64,000 nt of DNA, taken from contig CAYJPF010000001.1 of NCBI GenBank assembly GCA_964372025.1, positions 21,696 through 85,695 on the forward strand, given 5' to 3'. The DNA is from an uncultured Peptococcaceae bacterium (GTDB taxonomy: Bacteria; Bacillota; Dehalobacteriia; UBA4068). This document shows positions 4,461 through 28,005 of this stretch, piece by piece; position 1 is the stretch's first letter, and each line of letters starts with the position of its first letter. The notes beneath the pieces were generated by a model, which had not been told where the DNA came from, did no database searches, and saw only the letters and a list, made by a program, of their open reading frames with translations. The translations under genes were made by a program, and so were the position numbers.

Positions 4461-5540
4461 TTATACAACTGTCACTTGGCAAGTTGCAACCAATGCTTCC
4501 ATTGGAGCAGTTCTAGCAAGTGTAGCTGTGATAGTCGCAGTTCCAGCTCCTACAGCAGTTATAACTCCAGTCGCTGACACAGTTGCTACAGCAGCGTCAT
4601 CTGTAACATAAGTTACATCTGCTACATCAGGTCTAAATGGTGTTCCCATTGTTGGTATTACAAGAAGATCAACATTTTCAGTTTTAGCATCTGCAAGCGT
4701 CATTTCGATATCTGAATTTACACATACTAATGCTTTTGCATTACTATATTTTTCAGAACCATAAATTCTTTCTTTTATAGATGCGTATACTGCTGAAGTT
4801 GTACATCCGCCACTTGTTTGGAATGCTAATGCTCTACCAGCAAGTTCAGATTGAGATATTCCAGAACTTGACATTTGCATACCAATTCCGCTTGGGTTTA
4901 ATTGCAGAGATGGAATTTCAATTTCAACTTCACCTATTACAGAAGAAGATTCATCAGCAACTCCAGATTCAGAAGAACCTAATTGTGCTTTCAATACTAA
5001 TCTTCCTACTGATGGAATCATGTTTGCATTTACTTCAATAGTGATAGCAGTTGGGTCAAGAATATTATATGTTACACATACAATTTGATTTTCAACGCCT
5101 GAAGCATAAGTGAAGTCACTTCCTGTGAATTCAATAGATTCTCTTTCAGTGTCTACTCCAACAGTTTCCAATGTTCCTGTAACAACGCTGTTAGTTACAT
5201 ATTTTGAATTTATTGGAAGACCTTGAGTTACAGTTCCAGATCCCCCTACTCCAAGAGTAACTTCTTCTGTTACTTGGAATATATCTCCTACCATTAAGTT
5301 TGCACCAATAGATGGAGCTAACATTTCCATATTGAACTGTTGCTCAGTAAGGTTTACATTTAATTCAGCACTGTGATAGTAAATAAATTGTAGTGAATTA
5401 CCTTTTCCAGCCCTTGCATCTTCATTTTGTATTGTTGCTTCGATACTTGAGTCTACTAAAGTAGTAGATTTAAATATTAAATCTTGGCTATTGCTTTTGT
5501 AAAAATAAGCATCTGCAACAGAAAATAAAAATTTCTTCAT
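4461..5540 (-). CDS. structural protein with C-terminal bacterial Ig-like (Big_2) domain; major tail protein candidate
   Basis: The C-terminus (DVTYVTDDAAVATVSATGVITAVGAGTATITATL) is a Big_2-type Ig fold, common on major tail and capsid-decoration proteins. Strong RBS. Confidence 0.45.
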   Translation of the reverse strand: MKKFLFSVADAYFYKSNSQDLIFKSTTLVDSSIEATIQNEDARAGKGNSLQFIYYHSAELNVNLTEQQFNMEMLAPSIGANLMVGDIFQVTEEVTLGVGGSGTVTQGLPINSKYVTNSVVTGTLETVGVDTERESIEFTGSDFTYASGVENQIVCVTYNILDPTAITIEVNANMIPSVGRLVLKAQLGSSESGVADESSSVIGEVEIEIPSLQLNPSGIGMQMSSSGISQSELAGRALAFQTSGGCTTSAVYASIKERIYGSEKYSNAKALVCVNSDIEMTLADAKTENVDLLVIPTMGTPFRPDVADVTYVTDDAAVATVSATGVITAVGAGTATITATLARTAPMEALVATCQVTVV

Positions 5541-15611: not shown

Positions 15612-18557
15612 TTAAAATAACATTGCATATCCTTCAAGTAATTTAAAATCATCTTCTAATGTTCTCTTAGGATTTATAACGTTATCTCTTCTTATTGTAT
15701 GTAATGCATATCCTAACATTGCCATGCAATAGGCACGGTCATCATGCATCTTATTTTCTTTATCAGGGGACAAATCGTATCTGTATCCACCATTTGTTCC
15801 ATCAAATCTATATATATTTACTAATTCTTCTTTTAAAAAATCTATTTGTACAAAAGCATCTTTTTCATCTTGTGAAAGCATATGAATCTCTTCTTTATCA
15901 TTATCTGTTATAAAAAATTCTTTGCCATCATACTCTAATGGGAAAGATATCAAATCTAAACTAAGCATTTCAATCAACGCATCGTACATTACTGTTTTAT
16001 ATTTTTTTGGAGACAGCAATTTTAATTTATCAATTGCGTCTGGGAAATTATATAATTCTTCCTTGCTTTCCTCAGAATCTATAAGTCCTCTATGAAAATT
16101 ACCTGATGCATCATACCAATCTTCCATAAGATAATCAGCAATTGTAACTCCGCCTCCTCCTGAACCAGAATCTATAGATAAAGAATGTATATTTTCATAA
16201 TCGGCTGACATTTTGCCATTATAATCCAACATCATTTTCTTTATATAGTCAATTTGTTCTGGAGTTCTAATTGGAGTTCTTTTCTTCTTCATAATATCTG
16301 AGAAAGAAACGCAATTAATAATATCCATTTTATATCCAACATTTTCATCTAAATATATTTTTCCGACAAGCACTATGGAGTTATCATAGCTACGAGCTGG
16401 GTCGAAAGCCAATACAAATAAGCTTCTATCATCATTGTAAAATATTGGCAAGTACTTGTGCGAATTTCTCACGATCATTGCCCTTTTAATAGGCTGTGAA
16501 TCTCCTCCATCTTTAGTAAATATATTTTTGTACTCCCTCATAGCTTTTTCGGGATTTTGTCTCATTGCTAAATCAATTGTCTCTTGATCTATAAGAGGCG
16601 TTACGGGCTTTCCTTTCATTGTAGGGGCAAGTACCATATCGCAATTTATATCTGCAACAAAATAATTCGGATTCCCCATAAACATTTGCATTGAATATTC
16701 TTTATACATTGCGAAAAAATGTGTATCAACAGAAGATGCTGATGATGCAAGTATTCTTTGATTTGGTAAACTTTTAGGAGCTAATAAATTTGCAACTTGA
16801 TCTTCTTCAGATCCATATTTTGCTGAAGCATTTTGTGTTAAGAATGGCTCAGTTGCAATAAACAATTCATTTGGAGTAAATCCAGATTCATCGTAAAAAT
16901 TTAAATTAGAACGTATTCCTCTCAATCTATCATAAGCTCCCGATAAAGAGGTGATTTCTGATCCATTAAATAATTCGCAAGAATATCTTCCGTCTTTATG
17001 TGTAAACCCATCACTCTGAGAATTGCTACGCACTAATTCCATCGCAAATATATCTGTGCCACCAGTTATACTAGTGATCTCTTTTTTTGCAGTTTTTTCT
17101 ATCTTTTTAAATGTCTCCTGAGATTGACTTGCAGTCGATGCTAACAAATATGTTTTGTGACTTGGAAACAACATTGATTTAGCCATTATAAATGGAGCTG
17201 ACAGGAACGAATTATGTGTAACGGTGTGTTTTCCGCCACATATAAATAGTCCAGTGTTGTTGCCAACTGTGATGCATCTCATAGGTTTCTTAATTTTTGT
17301 TTTCCTTACGTCTACGATTGCTTTTGTCTGAGATATATCTGAAGATTTGTCTAATAACCTATCATATTTTCTTTTAAGTTTAAAAACTGCCATTTCTTTA
17401 CTTGCTGAAAAGTGAATTATATAAGTAAAAGCTTTTGTGCCATCTTTTTTTACATAGTTTATATTTTCTTTTTTTGTTATATTATTTTTTATTCCTAACG
17501 AAGATAATAATTGAGAAACTTGACTTATCAAATTATAATTAGTTTGGGAAAAACTACATCTTCCACTTTTATCAACATACCCATCACTATCCATAAGCCC
17601 TTGCAATAACTCTAGTCTTTGCTCTACAGAAGCATATAGATATTCATTTGGAATATGTTTGTTTTTGTATAAGTTCATTTCTCTGATTTTATTTAAAAAT
17701 GATCTTTTTTTCGAGCTCATTTTCGAACATCCATTTTCTTTAAAATCTTTTTCAAGGTCAAAAATAAATAAAAAACAATTATTTCTACTTTTATCTTTTT
17801 TTGTCTTAAAATAAGAAATTTTATTCTTAGTATTTTCAATCAAATCAGAAATATCGCTTTCAGCACATGTGATGTGAGAAGCACTACTAGTCCCATCTCC
17901 TAACCAATATCCTAGTATATATGGATCGATCTGCAAATTGTGTGATTTAGCATATTGAAGAGGTTTGCACAAAGGAATATGGAATCTATATTCTTTATTT
18001 CCATCTGTTCTTTCTATTAAAAATTTGCTATATAAAAAATCTGTATTTCTCAAACATGTCTGTCTTTCTCTTCTTTGCATAAATGACTTATCATAAACAG
18101 ACCATAAATGACTAGAATTTGCCTCAATTACTTCTCCATCTTCAAATTCAACTTCATAAACTTCTTCAAAGATAATAGGATTCAAATGTATGACTTCTGT
18201 TAATTTTCCATCATCGCCAAATATCTTATCTCCTATTTTTAATTCTCCAATTGTTTTTGTTACATTGTATCTATTTTCTTTTTCTCCTCTGTCTTTTGTC
18301 GAGACGTATACTTTGGTATCAAGAGTGACCGCTTTACCAGCCGATCTGTTCATTGCCCATAGACAAAAGGGAGTTCCCCAACTATTCATGAATACATATT
18401 TTTGAAAATCCATCAGATATATTCCAAAAAAATGTTCTACAAAACTAATTGGATTCTTTCTGCCCCATTGTATAATTTCACACCATTTTAAATATGCCTC
18501 ATATTTTCTTGTTGACATCTCGGTAGGAGTTTGTTTTATTATAATATTAGAATTCAT
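15612..18557 (-). CDS. terminase large subunit containing a LAGLIDADG intein in the Walker A motif
   Basis: The N-extein ends ..AMNRSAGK and the C-extein begins SFLSAPF.. Splicing restores the P-loop GKS. The intein has block A (AVTLDTKV), block B (EANSSHLW), two LAGLIDADG motifs (ILGYWLGDGT, LLQGLMDSDGYV) and a terminal HN followed by Ser+1. Confidence 0.7.
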   Translation of the reverse strand: MNSNIIIKQTPTEMSTRKYEAYLKWCEIIQWGRKNPISFVEHFFGIYLMDFQKYVFMNSWGTPFCLWAMNRSAGKAVTLDTKVYVSTKDRGEKENRYNVTKTIGELKIGDKIFGDDGKLTEVIHLNPIIFEEVYEVEFEDGEVIEANSSHLWSVYDKSFMQRRERQTCLRNTDFLYSKFLIERTDGNKEYRFHIPLCKPLQYAKSHNLQIDPYILGYWLGDGTSSASHITCAESDISDLIENTKNKISYFKTKKDKSRNNCFLFIFDLEKDFKENGCSKMSSKKRSFLNKIREMNLYKNKHIPNEYLYASVEQRLELLQGLMDSDGYVDKSGRCSFSQTNYNLISQVSQLLSSLGIKNNITKKENINYVKKDGTKAFTYIIHFSASKEMAVFKLKRKYDRLLDKSSDISQTKAIVDVRKTKIKKPMRCITVGNNTGLFICGGKHTVTHNSFLSAPFIMAKSMLFPSHKTYLLASTASQSQETFKKIEKTAKKEITSITGGTDIFAMELVRSNSQSDGFTHKDGRYSCELFNGSEITSLSGAYDRLRGIRSNLNFYDESGFTPNELFIATEPFLTQNASAKYGSEEDQVANLLAPKSLPNQRILASSASSVDTHFFAMYKEYSMQMFMGNPNYFVADINCDMVLAPTMKGKPVTPLIDQETIDLAMRQNPEKAMREYKNIFTKDGGDSQPIKRAMIVRNSHKYLPIFYNDDRSLFVLAFDPARSYDNSIVLVGKIYLDENVGYKMDIINCVSFSDIMKKKRTPIRTPEQIDYIKKMMLDYNGKMSADYENIHSLSIDSGSGGGGVTIADYLMEDWYDASGNFHRGLIDSEESKEELYNFPDAIDKLKLLSPKKYKTVMYDALIEMLSLDLISFPLEYDGKEFFITDNDKEEIHMLSQDEKDAFVQIDFLKEELVNIYRFDGTNGGYRYDLSPDKENKMHDDRAYCMAMLGYALHTIRRDNVINPKRTLEDDFKLLEGYAMLF
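17211..18332 (-). mobile_element. intein (about 374 aa) with LAGLIDADG homing-endonuclease domain, inside the terminase large subunit
   Basis: Boundaries were mapped at codon level: Ala1 at 18332-18330 directly after GK, and the HN terminus at 17216-17211 followed by Ser. The Ala1 start resembles KlbA-type inteins. Confidence 0.6.
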
Positions 18558-21360: not shown

Positions 21361-22005
21361 TTAAATAATTATATCTATATCAAAAACAATCTCATCTGCC
21401 ACACCATAGTCTATCGCTTCTTTAGCTGTCAAGAACCATTCTTTTTTAGAATATTTCCCATATATCTGTGTAGTGATTTTTGAATGTTCTAAAATATACT
21501 GTTTTACTTCTTTTTCTGTTTTTTTAATATCTTCAACTGTTTCAATAACTTGATTAGTTGTCCCTGAAACTCCATTTACATTGCCTTGATGTATAAGTAT
21601 TTTACTCTTAGGCATCACATACCTTTTGTCTCCAGCAAGGAATATCAGAGCTCCTGCTGACATACATATTCCCATATTGATAGTGTATATTGGAGTCTTG
21701 CTCATCTTGATAATATCAATTAGAGCATTTGCAAAATCCAATCCTCCCCCATATGTATAAATATATATATTGATAGGTTGTCTTGATTCTACAGGAATAT
21801 TTATATCTTCTAAGTTCCATTTCATTATATATCTAATGAAGTCCATATAATATTCACTAACTGTGTCATCTAACCATATCTTTCTATCTTTGAGATTTTC
21901 ATAGTAAACCATTGTAGCTGGATTTGGTAATTGCATATTATATAGTTCTTCTCCACCTACTATCCCAAAATCTCCTAATGATATCGATATTTCTTCTTTT
22001 CTCAT
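21361..22005 (-). CDS. ClpP-family serine protease
   Basis: GICMSAGALIFLAGDKRYVMPKSKILIHQ parallels the E. coli ClpP segment [28 protein letters not shown] that holds the catalytic Ser and His. Confidence 0.65.
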   Translation of the reverse strand: MRKEEISISLGDFGIVGGEELYNMQLPNPATMVYYENLKDRKIWLDDTVSEYYMDFIRYIMKWNLEDINIPVESRQPINIYIYTYGGGLDFANALIDIIKMSKTPIYTINMGICMSAGALIFLAGDKRYVMPKSKILIHQGNVNGVSGTTNQVIETVEDIKKTEKEVKQYILEHSKITTQIYGKYSKKEWFLTAKEAIDYGVADEIVFDIDIII

Positions 22006-22037
22006 TCAATTCTCCTTTACTCTAACACTCTAGTTTT

Positions 22038-22447
22038 TTACATCTCATCTGCTAGTCTTGAAATAGGATTTCTATAATCTGATTTAAGTTTAATACATCC
22101 AAATTGTTTATTTCCCCTAAATATCTCTATCATTCTTTCCATTCCAGCATCTTCTTCGTTTAGAACATCTTTTTGCTCTAAGATATCTCCTTCAATTAAC
22201 AATTTGCATCCAAATTTGCATCGTTGTATAATTGTTTTCATTTGATATATATTTATATTTTGGGCTTCTGTTACAATAACAACATCTCTCTCTCCAAATT
22301 CAACTCCTCTAATTTTACTTAAAGGAATGACTTCTAATTTTTCTTCATAAAGAAGAGTTGTTACTAAATCTGATCCACCTAATTTTGTTTTTAAAATCAT
22401 ACCTATATTATCATCCAAAAGTTTGTCTGTAAGACTACCTGGCAAAA
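22038..22447 (-). CDS. PIN-PhoH (YlaK-like) ATPase, exon 2
   Basis: PhoH C-terminal half: LPGSL..., IRGVEF, VVIVTEAQN (Walker B/DEAQ), GDILEQKD. It joins exon 1 in frame (T + TT gives Phe). Confidence 0.55.
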
Positions 22448-23741
22448 CGGTTTTCACTATAACTTTCATTATAGTCCAGACTATATCTTAATCTTAATTA
22501 ATTTTTATTTTTTAGATTTAAATATTTATCCCTTTTACGTTCTAAATATCTTTCGCAATTCTCATAATACAATTTGTCCATTATCTTTAAAACTTGTTGT
22601 TTTCCTCTCCATGCACAATGCCATGCATTTGTTTTAAATATCTTGTTGGATTTATTCTTTTTAATCATTTTGTCAATAATTTGTTGTATTTGCATTGTTA
22701 TGTTTTTAGAATAACTTGTAAAATGCAATGTTACATCTTTACCTTCTTCATCATAAGTAATGCATCCATCTCCATCAAACAATCCTCTTACAAAATCAAC
22801 TCTATATTTGTCAGGGATAAATTCTAATTTAAGAGAATCAATTTCGTATGTTTTATTTGGAACAATATTGTATTGCTTTAAGTCATCAAACATTTTTTTA
22901 CTTACAAATCCAATAGAACAATAGCCATTTCCTCTATTGTCATATTCAATTTTTGCATCCAAATTCAAATCATTTTTAAACTTTATAATTGTTTCAACGT
23001 CATCTTTCTTTAATCCAAACCTTATTTGATAAGTAGTATTTTGTATATTTCTAACATTGCCGTCAGCAAACAAAAATCCTATCCAATATGCTTTGAGTGG
23101 ACTATCTATTACTTCAAAATAGTCTTCATTAATAAATTTGTTTACAAAATTATTGTTTGGTTTACTTATTTCATTTTTCCTTATTATAAAACTTAAAGTA
23201 TTTGTATCTACATTATATTCTTTTGAAAGTTGGGATATCGTATATTTGTTACTCTCATATTTGTTTCTTATATCAGCTATCTCATCTTCTGTAAATTTTT
23301 TGCGTTTTCTTCCGCCTTTTATATAAACATTATTATTTCTCAGTATTCTATTTATCTGAGAGTATGACAAATCAAACACTTTTGTCATTTTCAATATAGA
23401 TACATTATTATTTGTATAATATTCTATCACTTTATTTTTTAGATTTAAATCCATTTTGTTTCCTTTAATTAATTAAGATTTGTTGTACTTCGAGATTTTA
23501 CTCCCTACTCCCTCACGGGATAGTCGTTGAACGTTCTCCTATTCGGAGCTTCGCTGCTGATTGCCCATTGTACTAGTACTTAGGATTTAACCATATACCA
23601 TCCAATTAATTTTTTCTGCTTTCGCAACTATTCCATTTAAGCATATTTCATCTTTCTGTTTTAGTTTAATTGGCTTTAGGGTATTCCAGCAATTCACAAC
23701 ATTTTCAATGCATATCACTATACAAGGGGGCTATGCCACTA
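22448..23741 (-). mobile_element. group I intron with a LAGLIDADG homing endonuclease ORF in P8
   Basis: Conserved P (AAUUGCUGGAAUA), Q (AAUCAGCAGC), R (GUUCAACGACUA, 23516-23532) and S (AAGAUAUAGUC, 22479-22489) elements are present. The exon 1 terminal U and an omega-G at 22448 define the splice sites. The spliced junction reads EPIG-F-LPGSLTDK, matching the PhoH consensus GFLPG. Confidence 0.6.
22498..23454 (-). CDS. LAGLIDADG homing endonuclease (intron-encoded) with N-terminal HTH repeats
   Basis: Two LAGLIDADG motifs (AYWIGFLFADGN and FVRGLFDGDGC). RBS AAAGGAAAC. Confidence 0.7.
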   Translation of the reverse strand: MDLNLKNKVIEYYTNNNVSILKMTKVFDLSYSQINRILRNNNVYIKGGRKRKKFTEDEIADIRNKYESNKYTISQLSKEYNVDTNTLSFIIRKNEISKPNNNFVNKFINEDYFEVIDSPLKAYWIGFLFADGNVRNIQNTTYQIRFGLKKDDVETIIKFKNDLNLDAKIEYDNRGNGYCSIGFVSKKMFDDLKQYNIVPNKTYEIDSLKLEFIPDKYRVDFVRGLFDGDGCITYDEEGKDVTLHFTSYSKNITMQIQQIIDKMIKKNKSNKIFKTNAWHCAWRGKQQVLKIMDKLYYENCERYLERKRDKYLNLKNKN

Positions 23742-24549
23742 ACCCTATTGGTTCACTTCCTTTTAACTCTTTGCAAGTTGATAACATATATATTTTGTTT
23801 ATATTTCCATTTTCCAATGCAGACAATGCATATCCTAATGAAAGAATTGTTTTTCCACTGCCACTTCGTCCAAACAAACAAGTGATGTTATTTGTTGAAA
23901 TACTGTCAAACGCACATCTTTGAACCACATCAAATGGCTTAACTTCTCCAATATATTTATTTGTAAATTTTTTATGAGAAAGTTCAATGTGTTCTTCTCC
24001 ATTCCATTTTAGAATACTCACAACATCATCTGTCTTGTCTTTCACAAGGATATATTCGTTAATTGACAAATCATAAATGTTTTTATCAAGATTTTCATAA
24101 AAATATGCTAATTCATCGTCGGTGTTTATTTTAACAAATTTATATCCTTTGAAGATTTCTTTAGCTTTATAGTCATTAAAATCTCTAACTCTAATACCTA
24201 ATGCCCTACATTTTTCAATCATATTTAAATCTTGAGTAAGCATTATCGCATCTCTATCTAAAGTTTCTTGAACGTGTAATGCACTTAATACAATTCTATT
24301 ATCGGGTCTTGTTATATCTAAATCTAATATATTTACCCTTGTTGCATTTGGCATTATATATATAAATTTATCTTTCAGCTCATTGATTTTTCTCATTGCT
24401 TGACGTGCTTTAAAAGATCTTGATGGATTTTCACTTGTTTTTAATTTATCTATTTCTTCTAAAACTACAATCGAACAATAAATTTTTTCATATTCTTCTA
24501 ATTCAACATCATTTAAAAGAATATTAGTATCTACAATGCAAGATTTCAA
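23742..24549 (-). CDS. PIN-PhoH (YlaK-like) ATPase, exon 1
   Basis: TTG start at 24549 with RBS AAAGGGTGA. An N-terminal PIN domain is followed by the PhoH Walker A (GRSGSGKT). The exon ends ..EPIG with a terminal U at 23742. The ORF-track tail LVA* is intron read-through. Confidence 0.55.
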
Positions 24550-24567
24550 ACCTTATCACCCTTTCTG

Positions 24568-24732
24568 TTAAAATGACTCAATCGTATGTTTGCTCATAAC
24601 TTCACAATATTTGTAAAAGTCTCTGTCGCTTAACCAATAATGACGTTTTTTAACAGATTTCGATACTCCATCTCTTGGAATAAAACCGAATTTTTTTGCT
24701 TGTTTATACTCGGCTTTTCTAATGCTACGCAT
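24568..24732 (-). CDS. hypothetical small basic protein (not in the ORF track)
   Basis: 54-aa ORF (MRSIRKAEYKQAKKFGF...) with RBS GGAGGA 6 nt upstream, lying between two genes. Confidence 0.3.
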   Translation of the reverse strand: MRSIRKAEYKQAKKFGFIPRDGVSKSVKKRHYWLSDRDFYKYCEVMSKHTIESF

Positions 24733-24837
24733 TCACAATCCTCCAATTATTTTTACTACGAAAACTACAACTTATGAAAATTCCTTGTATTTAGGCGTTT
24801 TTTTAACACCTTAAATATATTATTACATAATATAGTT

Positions 24838-25482: not shown

Positions 25483-28005
25483 TTATATTTTTTCCATATC
25501 ATAAAACCTACCTAGATATTCATATTTTCCATTTTCACTCAATGATGGAAGATAAATTTCTGATTTATTTTTACTTAGATTTTCCAATACTCCTAATGGA
25601 GCAACTTTCCAAATAAAAGATTTATCTTTGTTAGAATATTTTTCATAACATAATTGTACGACAATATTTGCTAATTCTTTTTCGTTGGGGCATATCTCTT
25701 GGCATCTATCTTTATATAAATCATAATAGTGTTGCCAATCGAATTTAAATCCTATAATTTCATCTTGTGTCATATCTGGATAATACAAAGATATCCAATT
25801 TTTATACTTGCTATGATTATTAAATTTATATTGATGTTGAGCTAATTCAGCCATTTCTTTTGTGTACTCTTGAAATACTCTTTCAATTTTTTCAACTGTT
25901 TTTTTATTTAGAGGGATATTCTCATCTGTCATAATCTTATAATTAAAGTCTTTTATTTTTTGTTTATGTTTCACAGTATTTTTTTCCCATTTTTCAATTT
26001 CCCAGCATAGTCTATTCATATTGGTTTGAGTATTTGCAAATTCTGATAACCCTGCATAATAACTACTAGCGTACTTCATAAAATATGGCAGTGGTTTTGC
26101 GTATTTTGCTATATGTCTTGGTATGTTAAATATTACTCCAGTTTTAGCAAAATCGATTGCCTTTCCGTTTATAATACTTAAAATATCAACATATTTCAAG
26201 TATTTTTGTTTTGTTTCTTCTGACTTTGGATTTTTATTGATATAGCAAGTCGCAGTGTTTGATATTTCTCCTATCAAAGAATTTACTGTTCTTAATACCA
26301 ATGCAAGTAGGTTTTCTTTATTATATTCTTCATCAAGAGCTGTAATTTTATCTTCTGTATCGATTACGATTGGGATATTCCTAGGTGCTCCCTCCTTCAT
26401 AATCTCATTGTCGATAACTAAAACTAAGTCTCCATCTACGTCCGAACCATTTAGTTGTTGCAATACCAAGCTTTGCCCATTTATCATACATATATTTGAT
26501 AGGTGAGAGCACCATCTTGATATATCTGAATTTTCTACAGCATTAAGTAATACGTGTTCAGATCTTGTTATATGAGGATTTCTTTCTATAAGATATTCTC
26601 CTTTATAAGAGCCATTTAGATTATTTGTATAAAATTCATCATTATTCAAACATCCTTTAGGCTCTAATCCTCCAATATATTCCATAAACATTATTAAATC
26701 AACGCAAGATATTTTAAAAGTAGATTTAATCCACAGTTTGCCACTCTTCATTTCATTAATGTATTTTTTAAATAATGAAATTAAATATTTGCGAATACTC
26801 TCTTCTTTAAACATCTCTTCGTTCATCAACAGTGCTTTCATATAATTATTTAAAGGTTCGTGCTTTTCTTTTGTAAGCCCTAAGAAAGCATAAGAGTATA
26901 GTTTATCTCCACCTAATATTTTCTCAATCCAAGATATACTATATTTTGCCAACTTAATAAATTTATTAAATGGAAGTTCTAAATCTTGCAATATTTGATA
27001 ATTTGCACGAGTGTAAACAGGTTCTTCTTTTAAAGAAAAATTCCATTTGGCTATTCCAATGCAATGATTATATTCGTCAAATTTATTCCAATAATTCGTC
27101 CAATCTTCAAAAGTATTTTTATCTTTAAAATATTTAAAACCTTTGTACATACTCTCGGTCATAATTATCATCACGCTGTCTATCGAATGTTTCTCTCCCC
27201 AGATATCAACTATAAACTCAACGTTTCTTTCTCTTAGAAATGTCGTATAATCCATCTCGTGAGTAACCCCTTTGATAAATGGTGCACGCCACATAATACT
27301 TGTTGGCTTAGTCTTGCTTTTTAGATGTTCTTCGACTTGATATGTTATATAAGGATGGTGGATTCCCATTCCGTCAAAAACATTAATTTCATAATCGACG
27401 ACACTTTCTGAAATTCCCTTTTGCACCCATTGTTTTTCTTCTTCAGTTTCTTTATCTATATAGGTTGAATGTTCATCTATAAGATGTTTTATCTTTTGAT
27501 TTTTAATCACTTTCATATAATCTGATACAACTATAATTTTAGGCTTCCAATTTTCTATACAGTGACAAGATGATAACATCAATCCTCTATATGCAACATA
27601 CTTAGACAAAACAGTTCTATTGATTTTTAAGCCCATTGTAACACGTTCAACTAGTTGTTTTTCTATATCTTCTCTAACAAAACTTAATGTTGCTTGACGT
27701 GTCATACTAGCACTTCTCTCGGACATTATATATTTTTTATTATCAATATAAAATCCTTCTTTTATGAGCTTTGATAAATTTTCTAAATCACTTTTTCCAC
27801 TCTTAATATCTACAAAAACAATATATTTATTGTATCTGCAACTATCTTCAGTAATTAATCTGATTTGTCTAAATAGCAAATTGTCTTGTTGATTTATAGC
27901 ATATCTATTCCTATCTTTTGTTCTTTCAAAATCAAATCTAAAATCATTATCTATAATTTGTCTATAAGTAAATTTCAAAACTTGATATAATTTAGGTGCA
28001 AACAA
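25483..28005 (-). CDS. candidate single-subunit non-canonical RNA polymerase (YonO-like, beta-prime-type double-psi beta-barrel)
   Basis: 840 aa. ERNPHITRSEH is followed 38 aa later by NGSDVDGDLVLV, reproducing the spacing of beta-prime NRAPTLHRL....NADFDGDQMAVHV (catalytic Asp triad). Its size is close to YonO (about 830 aa). Confidence 0.45.
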   Translation of the reverse strand: MFAPKLYQVLKFTYRQIIDNDFRFDFERTKDRNRYAINQQDNLLFRQIRLITEDSCRYNKYIVFVDIKSGKSDLENLSKLIKEGFYIDNKKYIMSERSASMTRQATLSFVREDIEKQLVERVTMGLKINRTVLSKYVAYRGLMLSSCHCIENWKPKIIVVSDYMKVIKNQKIKHLIDEHSTYIDKETEEEKQWVQKGISESVVDYEINVFDGMGIHHPYITYQVEEHLKSKTKPTSIMWRAPFIKGVTHEMDYTTFLRERNVEFIVDIWGEKHSIDSVMIIMTESMYKGFKYFKDKNTFEDWTNYWNKFDEYNHCIGIAKWNFSLKEEPVYTRANYQILQDLELPFNKFIKLAKYSISWIEKILGGDKLYSYAFLGLTKEKHEPLNNYMKALLMNEEMFKEESIRKYLISLFKKYINEMKSGKLWIKSTFKISCVDLIMFMEYIGGLEPKGCLNNDEFYTNNLNGSYKGEYLIERNPHITRSEHVLLNAVENSDISRWCSHLSNICMINGQSLVLQQLNGSDVDGDLVLVIDNEIMKEGAPRNIPIVIDTEDKITALDEEYNKENLLALVLRTVNSLIGEISNTATCYINKNPKSEETKQKYLKYVDILSIINGKAIDFAKTGVIFNIPRHIAKYAKPLPYFMKYASSYYAGLSEFANTQTNMNRLCWEIEKWEKNTVKHKQKIKDFNYKIMTDENIPLNKKTVEKIERVFQEYTKEMAELAQHQYKFNNHSKYKNWISLYYPDMTQDEIIGFKFDWQHYYDLYKDRCQEICPNEKELANIVVQLCYEKYSNKDKSFIWKVAPLGVLENLSKNKSEIYLPSLSENGKYEYLGRFYDMEKI

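Follow-up and report, generated by a model that had tools for sequence, protein, structure and literature searches.

Homing endonucleases of the LAGLIDADG type are rarer in the introns of bacteriophages than those of the HNH or GIY-YIG families (PMC3984707, PMC11878797), as a sequence-only reading of the locus described here had also stated, and among the proteins encoded in Bastillevirinae introns a 2025 survey recorded a single LAGLIDADG-motif homing endonuclease, which was located in a DNA polymerase gene (PMC11878797). In the Staphylococcus phages SA11 and phiSA_BS1 (Twortvirinae, Herelleviridae) such an enzyme is encoded between the two halves of a RecA/UvsX-like recombinase gene, and the SA11 record in GenBank annotates it as an intron-encoded putative endonuclease. 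A group I intron in the recombinase gene of kayviruses encodes the endonuclease I-MsaII; liquid chromatography-tandem mass spectrometry of fRuSau02, a kayvirus, detected the recombinase whose gene this intron interrupts (PMC5618024). Here we describe an element of comparable type in a different host gene, found in a 64,000-nucleotide stretch of contig CAYJPF010000001.1; 'the window' denotes this whole stretch, all coordinates are numbered within it, and every feature of the intron locus lies on its minus strand. Our essential contention, to which we attach a probability of about 0.92, is that positions 22448-23741 are a mobile, IA2-like phage group I intron with a LAGLIDADG homing endonuclease gene borne in its P8 loop, and that this intron interrupts a gene for a PIN-PhoH protein.

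In the source collection the locus is recorded as three gene products, separate and unnamed. Three open reading frames (ORFs) were found where the sequence-only reading had placed them, at 23731-24549, 22498-23454 and 22038-22469, and the domain content it had proposed for them was borne out by Pfam. The first (272 amino acids) contains a PIN domain (PIN_4, E 5.7e-17) and the beginning of PhoH, profile positions 2-55, including the Walker A sequence GRSGSGKT; the last (143 amino acids) matches PhoH profile positions 92-188; and the middle one, of 318 amino acids, carries two LAGLIDADG motifs (LAGLIDADG_3, 38.4 bits against a cut-off of 22.5). The spacer of 1.29 kb described in that reading is right for the intron, which measures 1,294 nucleotides from the base after U 23742 through the terminal G 22448, and wrong for the distance from one PhoH ORF to the other, which measures 1,261. 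Ligation of the sequence that ends at U 23742 to the sequence that follows G 22448 keeps the reading frame, as had been claimed, and gives ...GSEPIG-F-LPGSLTDK... across a predicted ligated junction ...CCAATAGGGT/TTTTGCCAGG..., that is, GGGT/TTTTGCC. Exon 1 (23742-24549), delimited from the ORF list, the Pfam matches to PIN_4 and PhoH and the alignment to intron-less homologs, begins with a TTG start, comprises the PIN domain and the N-terminal part of PhoH with Walker A, and ends in ...GSEPIG and the first base (T) of a phenylalanine codon. Exon 2 (22038-22447) supplies the other two bases of that codon, then LPGSLTDK..., a Walker B-like VTEAQN and the PhoH C-terminus; the first seven codons of the downstream ORF (MKVIVKT) are intron sequence from the P9 hairpin and not exon.

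The predicted spliced product is a 405-amino-acid PIN-PhoH protein of the YlaK/PhoH2 type. It scores 103.5 bits on the PhoH profile in a single stretch (positions 2-188 of 205, E 1.4e-29), against 32.2 and 59.9 bits for its halves, and retains the PIN_4 match (E 1.9e-16). A homolog search over 5.8 billion proteins yielded numerous PIN-PhoH proteins of full length; the best intron-less one (P0002) is itself exactly 405 amino acids long, with 62% identity by BLASTP and 64% in the alignment, followed by P0003 at 57% and P0004-P0007 at 50-51%, and two homologs are named 'predicted ribonuclease YlaK' by the Joint Genome Institute. Single-piece, full-length tblastn matches were found in Geobacillus, Bacillus and Enterococcus phages, while a scan of IMG/VR with the spliced protein gave one distant PhoH locus. 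Comparison of the conceptual product with intron-less homologs, which the sequence-only reading had named as a check of the junction, came out in its favour: it aligns colinearly, over nearly its full length, with 12 homologs, GSEPIGFLPGS at the junction lies opposite GSEPIGFLPGT in P0002, and the alignment is ungapped at this point in all 13 sequences, so that the intron lies in phase 1 of the phenylalanine codon of the conserved motif G-F-L-P-G. Both exons have uninterrupted frames and keep the invariant PhoH residues. The canonical Walker B of PhoH is DEAQ; in exon 2 (22254-22271) it reads T-E-A-Q, but T329, E330 and Q332 do not vary between the window and its 12 aligned relatives, and the threonine recurs in two other interrupted PhoH genes described below (L017 and L018), so that comparison of these sequences indicates a clade-wide variant, T-E-x-Q, and no defect of this copy.

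All helices of a group I ribozyme, P1 to P9, can be placed by hand around these splice sites. In P1 (23728-23745), the exon bases GGGU with the intron bases UA (23745-23740) pair with the guide UAGCCC (23733-23728), which sets the splice-site U 23742 opposite a G; the same U.G pair occupies this column in seven of nine aligned introns, and GGCA in the P1 loop is able to pair with UGCC of exon 2 as P10. The 5' part of the core (23470-23727) is supported by a partial Rfam match, an unconstrained fold, covariation and relatives. It opens with P2 (23724-23709), a hairpin with a GUGA loop, and P3, in which UGUUGUG at 23701-23695 pairs with UACAACA at 23487-23481. The P element (23694-23682) and the Q element (23562-23553) contain the strands of P4 (UGCUGG with UCAGCA) and enclose a long extended P5 domain, including P5a (23673-23666 with 23609-23602); P6 (23548-23536, CUCC with GGAG) and the R element with the 5' strand of P7 (23532-23521; GACUA with UAGUC) come after them. 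Between P7 and P3' stand two further predicted hairpins, P7.1 (23520-23509) and P7.2 (23503-23492), of a kind that is a trait of subgroup IA. The P8 stem of 11 base pairs, AAUCUUAAUUA with UAAUUAAGAUU, brackets the endonuclease ORF exactly, its 5' strand at 23480-23470 and its 3' strand at 22500-22490 overlapping the TAA stop of that ORF. The 3' part of the ribozyme (22448-22500), identified from this stem and a second partial Rfam match, continues with the S element, comprising J8/7 and the 3' strand of P7 (22489-22479), the P9 hairpin (22475-22456), GAAAACC and the terminal G. The P, Q, R and S strings given in the sequence-only reading each occur once within the intron region. When the ORF was replaced by four bases, the unconstrained fold recovered P2-P6, P7.1, P7.2, P8 and P9, while P7 is missing from it because it crosses P3; in the window P3, P4, P5a, P6 and P8 are perfectly paired.

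Comparative evidence for this structure, and with it for the interpretation as a group I intron, comes from an alignment of nine introns over 355 columns, in which the hand-placed pairs were set against slid partners and 500 shuffles. The named helices are paired in 91.3% of cells, compared with 33-42% after displacement of the 3' partners by one to three columns; 46 of the 75 base pairs show compensatory changes on both sides, and no shuffle reached the real value on any of five measures. P5a is the clearest helix, with eight pairs, seven of them compensatory, and 100% pairing. Introns of Enterocloster phage CB457P1 and of the tail-tube gene of Staphylococcus phage phiIPLA-RODI share 78-80% identity with the 5' core (blastn against known phage introns, E 1e-44), and recognisable kin of the ribozyme occur in introns of Bacillus, Clostridium, Enterococcus, Lactococcus and Brochothrix phages. 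A nhmmer profile of the aligned introns found no second copy in the window.

The 318-amino-acid ORF in the P8 loop (22498-23454) has a Shine-Dalgarno-like AAAGGA six nucleotides upstream of its ATG. Its two motifs, WIGFLFADG (amino acids 124-132, encoded at 23085-23059) and VRGLFDGDG (222-230, at 22791-22765), contain the catalytic residues D131 and D229, and ten positions are invariant among 37 homologs: G126, D131, G132, K201, G224, F226, D227, G228, D229 and G230. The AlphaFold2 model is confident (mean predicted local distance difference score, pLDDT, 93.7; predicted template modelling score, pTM, 0.74) and comprises two three-helix, helix-turn-helix-like (HTH-like) modules at about amino acids 1-95, followed by two LAGLIDADG half-domains, each of helices plus sheet, in agreement with the pseudo-dimeric alpha-beta-beta-alpha-beta-beta-alpha fold of such enzymes. 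Foldseek aligned it in the PDB with I-AniI, the bI3 maturase, enzymes of the I-OnuI family, I-Tsp061I and PI-PfuI, all at probability 1.00. The Pfam match, the conserved catalytic residues and the predicted fold identify the protein as a putative monomeric, double-motif LAGLIDADG enzyme; for its N-terminal part there are weak HTH matches only, which together with the model lead us to propose a DNA-binding domain there. A scan of IMG/VR with the endonuclease found nothing.

The distribution of the intron among related contigs also bears on its mobility. Two metagenomic contigs (L006 and L007) are syntenic with the window, sharing the order YonO-like RNA polymerase, an ORF of about 210 amino acids, PhoH, ClpP, HU, YonJ-like, YonG-like and TerL, and in both of them PhoH is uninterrupted; the empty sites read GGAT/TTTTACCGGG and GGAT/TTCTTCCGGG, against GGGT/TTTTGCCAGG in the window. 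The three closest homologs of the endonuclease (P0123, 45%; P0122, 41%; P0127, 42%) each reside in a split PhoH gene on another phage contig of metagenomic origin. Such presence and absence, combined with recurrence at the same site, is the pattern that would be expected of a site-specific homing element directed at a conserved motif.

The PhoH introns of three other contigs, L017, L018 and L019 (2280-3552), resemble that of the window in carrying these closest homologs (41-45%), and those of L017 and L018 do so more fully: they occupy the identical codon and phase in G-F-(L/Y)-P-G, hold their ORF in P8 and belong to the same ribozyme family. Their ribozymes, however, are smaller, without P2 and two hairpins of the P5 domain. 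The PhoH exons of these two contigs are only 34-35% identical to those of the window while the endonucleases are 41-45% identical, a pattern which, taken alone, is compatible both with horizontal transfer and with an endonuclease that diverges more slowly. L019 differs in having its intron three codons downstream of this position, behind A-L-P-G; none of the 3' splice sites that end in G preserves the F-E-K-L-L motif which follows, and the best junction would need a terminal base other than G. A further difference of L017 and L018 from the window is that TAG appears to be read as a sense codon. In-frame TAG occurs where homologs have glutamine (L017 2501-3445 and L018 1364-3915; for example ITEA*NLD, the asterisk marking the TAG, against ITEAQN), and in L017 the TAG codons fall in the endonuclease ORF and none in the PhoH exons; comparison of these sequences suggests that the two phages read TAG as glutamine. 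At the end of a lysozyme gene L018 has another intron whose ribozyme is of this family (4870-5166), followed by a NUMOD3-containing ORF; with nhmmer this intron scores 124.5 bits, above the PhoH intron of that contig.

Several points weigh against the proposed mobile group I intron in the window. On the native window no Rfam family reaches its gathering score, which for Intron_gpI (RF00028) is 50 bits. The scan with group I models that the sequence-only reading had proposed was successful only in part: both halves of the ribozyme match Intron_gpI in a search restricted to 21900-24000 (2.1 kb), at 23473-23751 (model 1-253 with long insertions, 29.5 bits, E 4.4e-5) and 22459-22491 (model 219-251, 24.8 bits, E 1.2e-3), and the two partial scores are not simply additive. 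An E-value scan of the whole window with Rfam returned a chance-level microRNA as its sole match. The structure was read off the window sequence, which favours that sequence in the slid control, and P7.1 (69% of cells paired) and P7.2 (67%) gain weak support from comparison, which had four comparable sequences to draw on. A sequence search of the PDB with the endonuclease gave no match, and a promoter and terminator scan of 21900-24800 did not rise above shuffles, with 21 promoter-like sites against 19.9 expected. Splicing, endonuclease activity and the target sequence are all matters that we infer. The missed gathering score, however, is probably best explained by the 957-nucleotide ORF, which splits the model at P8, and not by absence of a ribozyme, given that the CB457P1 intron, whose P8 is a short hairpin in place of the ORF, attains 93.6 bits on RF00028. 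Rfam also gave no match at E <= 1 to the phiIPLA-RODI intron despite its identity of about 80% to the window core, and therefore its sensitivity is uneven for this family of introns.

One alternative is that the intron is a relic, its ribozyme or endonuclease dead, which would leave PhoH a pseudogene or reduced to a 272-amino-acid fragment of PIN and Walker A. The shortfall in Rfam score, a case for splicing drawn from sequence and the public gene calls of three separate proteins would all accord with decay, but a decaying element is expected to show frameshifts or broken helices, and here every core helix is intact, five of them perfect, the exons remain open with their invariant residues in place, the endonuclease ORF is untruncated and has both catalytic aspartates, and the guide still matches the exon; we regard a relic as improbable. 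It is less probable still that a free-standing homing endonuclease gene has inserted into PhoH and that the halves reassemble as two polypeptides without RNA splicing, an arrangement to be compared with the split nrdA of Aeromonas phage Aeh1. The downstream ORF does have its own ATG, at 22469, as this would require; that ATG, however, lies inside the P9 hairpin and the seven codons that it introduces have no counterpart in homologs, the break falls within a codon of the most conserved motif, and the endonuclease is flanked by a complete, covarying ribozyme for which a free-standing insertion has no need.

Intervening elements of other kinds, a group II intron, an intein or a chimera of the IStron type, might be entertained on two grounds, namely that relatives of the ribozyme in Clostridium phage c-st and Bacillus phage LY2 precede ORFs annotated as transposases, and that the window does contain an intein, in its large terminase gene. 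An intein is excluded at PhoH by the reading frame of exon 1, which meets a stop three codons into the insert, and a group II intron or IStron by the domain content of the insert, its only ORF being the LAGLIDADG gene with no reverse transcriptase or transposase domain; group I is moreover the sole intron family matched in Rfam, and we consider the chance of such an element to be close to negligible. A group I intron with its own homing endonuclease is the interpretation that we adopt, as had the sequence-only reading. As a mobile element it is genuine but fairly commonplace, and it leaves the understanding of such elements unchanged. Its recognition restores one PIN-PhoH gene of 405 amino acids from three recorded products, and the same correction of annotation applies to at least two further metagenomic phages, L017 and L018, and probably also to L019.

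In the mechanism that we propose for this intron, the transcript would fold into P1-P9, with GGGU of the exon paired to GCCC of the internal guide. An external guanosine would then attack after U 23742, and the freed exon 1 would attack after the terminal G 22448, so as to produce a ligated mRNA for the full PIN-PhoH protein. By analogy with other intron homing endonucleases, the encoded enzyme would cut intron-less PhoH alleles near the junction GGGT/TTTTGCCAGGTAGT in mixed infection, and repair would copy the intron into the cut allele; enzymes of the LAGLIDADG type usually cut so as to leave 3' overhangs of four nucleotides. A more ambitious joint reading can be constructed, in which the G-F-L-P-G site is home to a dedicated and hitherto undescribed lineage of intron and LAGLIDADG gene that moves among unrelated gut phages, including those that would read TAG as glutamine, and in which the HTH-LAGLIDADG protein does more than homing. 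Its additional role might be that of a maturase for its own ribozyme, as with I-AniI and bI3; alternatively, the efficiency of splicing might time the appearance of the full PIN-PhoH ribonuclease against that of a truncated 272-amino-acid, PIN-only product during infection. We offer this joint reading as speculation with a rather small chance of being correct.

With regard to the genomic context, the protein encoded at 25483-28005 (minus strand; 840 amino acids) matches the Pfam family RdRP (PF05183) at E 4.6e-21 and is 25-27% identical to YonO of SPbeta, which is annotated as a DNA-directed RNA polymerase in records of SPbeta-like Bacillus phages. This protein and its YonJ-like and YonG-like neighbours therefore lead us to assign the locus, from gene content, to an uncultured SPbeta-like phage with a putative YonO-type RNA polymerase. 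Among isolates, the nearest by RNA polymerase are the Thomasclavelia phages TR-TP1 and TR-TP2, at 41%.

The large terminase gene of the same phage (15612-18557, minus strand; 981 amino acids) contains an intein of 374 amino acids at approximately 17211-18332, directly after Walker A, with borders ...NRSAGK/AVTLDT ... VTHN/SFLSAP... and a LAGLIDADG_3/Hom_end domain. It begins with alanine, has a cysteine in ...MRCITV... and ends at THN/S, and we take it to be possibly of the class 3 type. The syntenic terminases form a series with it: L006 has no intein (609 amino acids), L007 has a mini-intein at the same site without an endonuclease domain (757 amino acids), and the window has the full intein. 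The endonucleases of the terminase intein and of the PhoH intron are only 24% identical, which points to independent invasions.

Set against the systems from which we began, the endonuclease of the window is homologous to those of SA11 and phiSA_BS1, with 32-37% identity over about 65% of the length, and shares their design: 318 amino acids compare with 322, and in each an N-terminal HTH region is followed by two LAGLIDADG_3 repeats. The surroundings differ, since the Staphylococcus phage enzymes belong to Herelleviridae and divide a recombinase gene and that of the window belongs to an SPbeta-like phage and divides PhoH. A LAGLIDADG protein of the same architecture was therefore already present in recombinase genes of Staphylococcus phages, and the element described here represents a known type in a new host gene. 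A full-text search on PhoH, group I intron and phage found no described PhoH intron, and within the literature so searched PIN-PhoH has not previously been reported as an intron host gene; PhoH, widely used as a marker gene for phages, joins the conserved phage genes that homing introns target.

In structural terms the enzyme shares its monomeric, double-motif fold with I-AniI and the bI3 maturase, both from fungal mitochondrial introns, and with the I-OnuI family (Foldseek E 1.8e-8 to 1e-6). Identity to these proteins is only 10-17%, however, and they are without the tandem HTH region at the N-terminus; I-AniI and bI3 are documented maturases. Being compact, modelled with confidence and equipped with an additional tandem-HTH domain, the LAGLIDADG enzyme of the window could be of interest to those who engineer meganucleases.

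The ribozyme has its relatives elsewhere. IA2-like introns of Firmicute phages share its helices, among them those of CB457P1, of the tail-tube genes of phiIPLA-RODI and Remus, of a ribonucleotide reductase gene in Enterococcus phage phiM1EF22 and of the Pol III gene of Lactococcus phage AM9, and in the closest of these P7.1 and P7.2 are likewise placed, as predicted hairpins, between P7 and P3'. They differ from the intron of the window in that they interrupt other host genes, are ORF-less or encode enzymes of other families, and have their ORF, where present, downstream of P7' instead of in P8. The ORF of the CB457P1 intron is annotated as an I-TevI-type (GIY-YIG) intron-associated endonuclease; that of phiIPLA-RODI, which we considered as a relative of the window endonuclease, was rejected as such, being I-HmuI-like and without similarity to it. 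The same ribozyme core also stands before the transposase-annotated ORFs in the portal gene of Bacillus phage LY2 (L009 1801-3331) and in Clostridium phage c-st (L010 1801-3545), and either may be an IStron-like chimera in which a group I intron is joined to an insertion sequence. The closest ribozymes thus carry other enzymes at another position, while the closest endonucleases reside in trimmed ribozymes, and ribozyme and endonuclease gene must therefore have had separate histories. This is modular evolution, in which the ribozyme of the window is nearest to introns that bear HNH-like or GIY-YIG enzymes and its LAGLIDADG gene is nearest to those of other PhoH introns.

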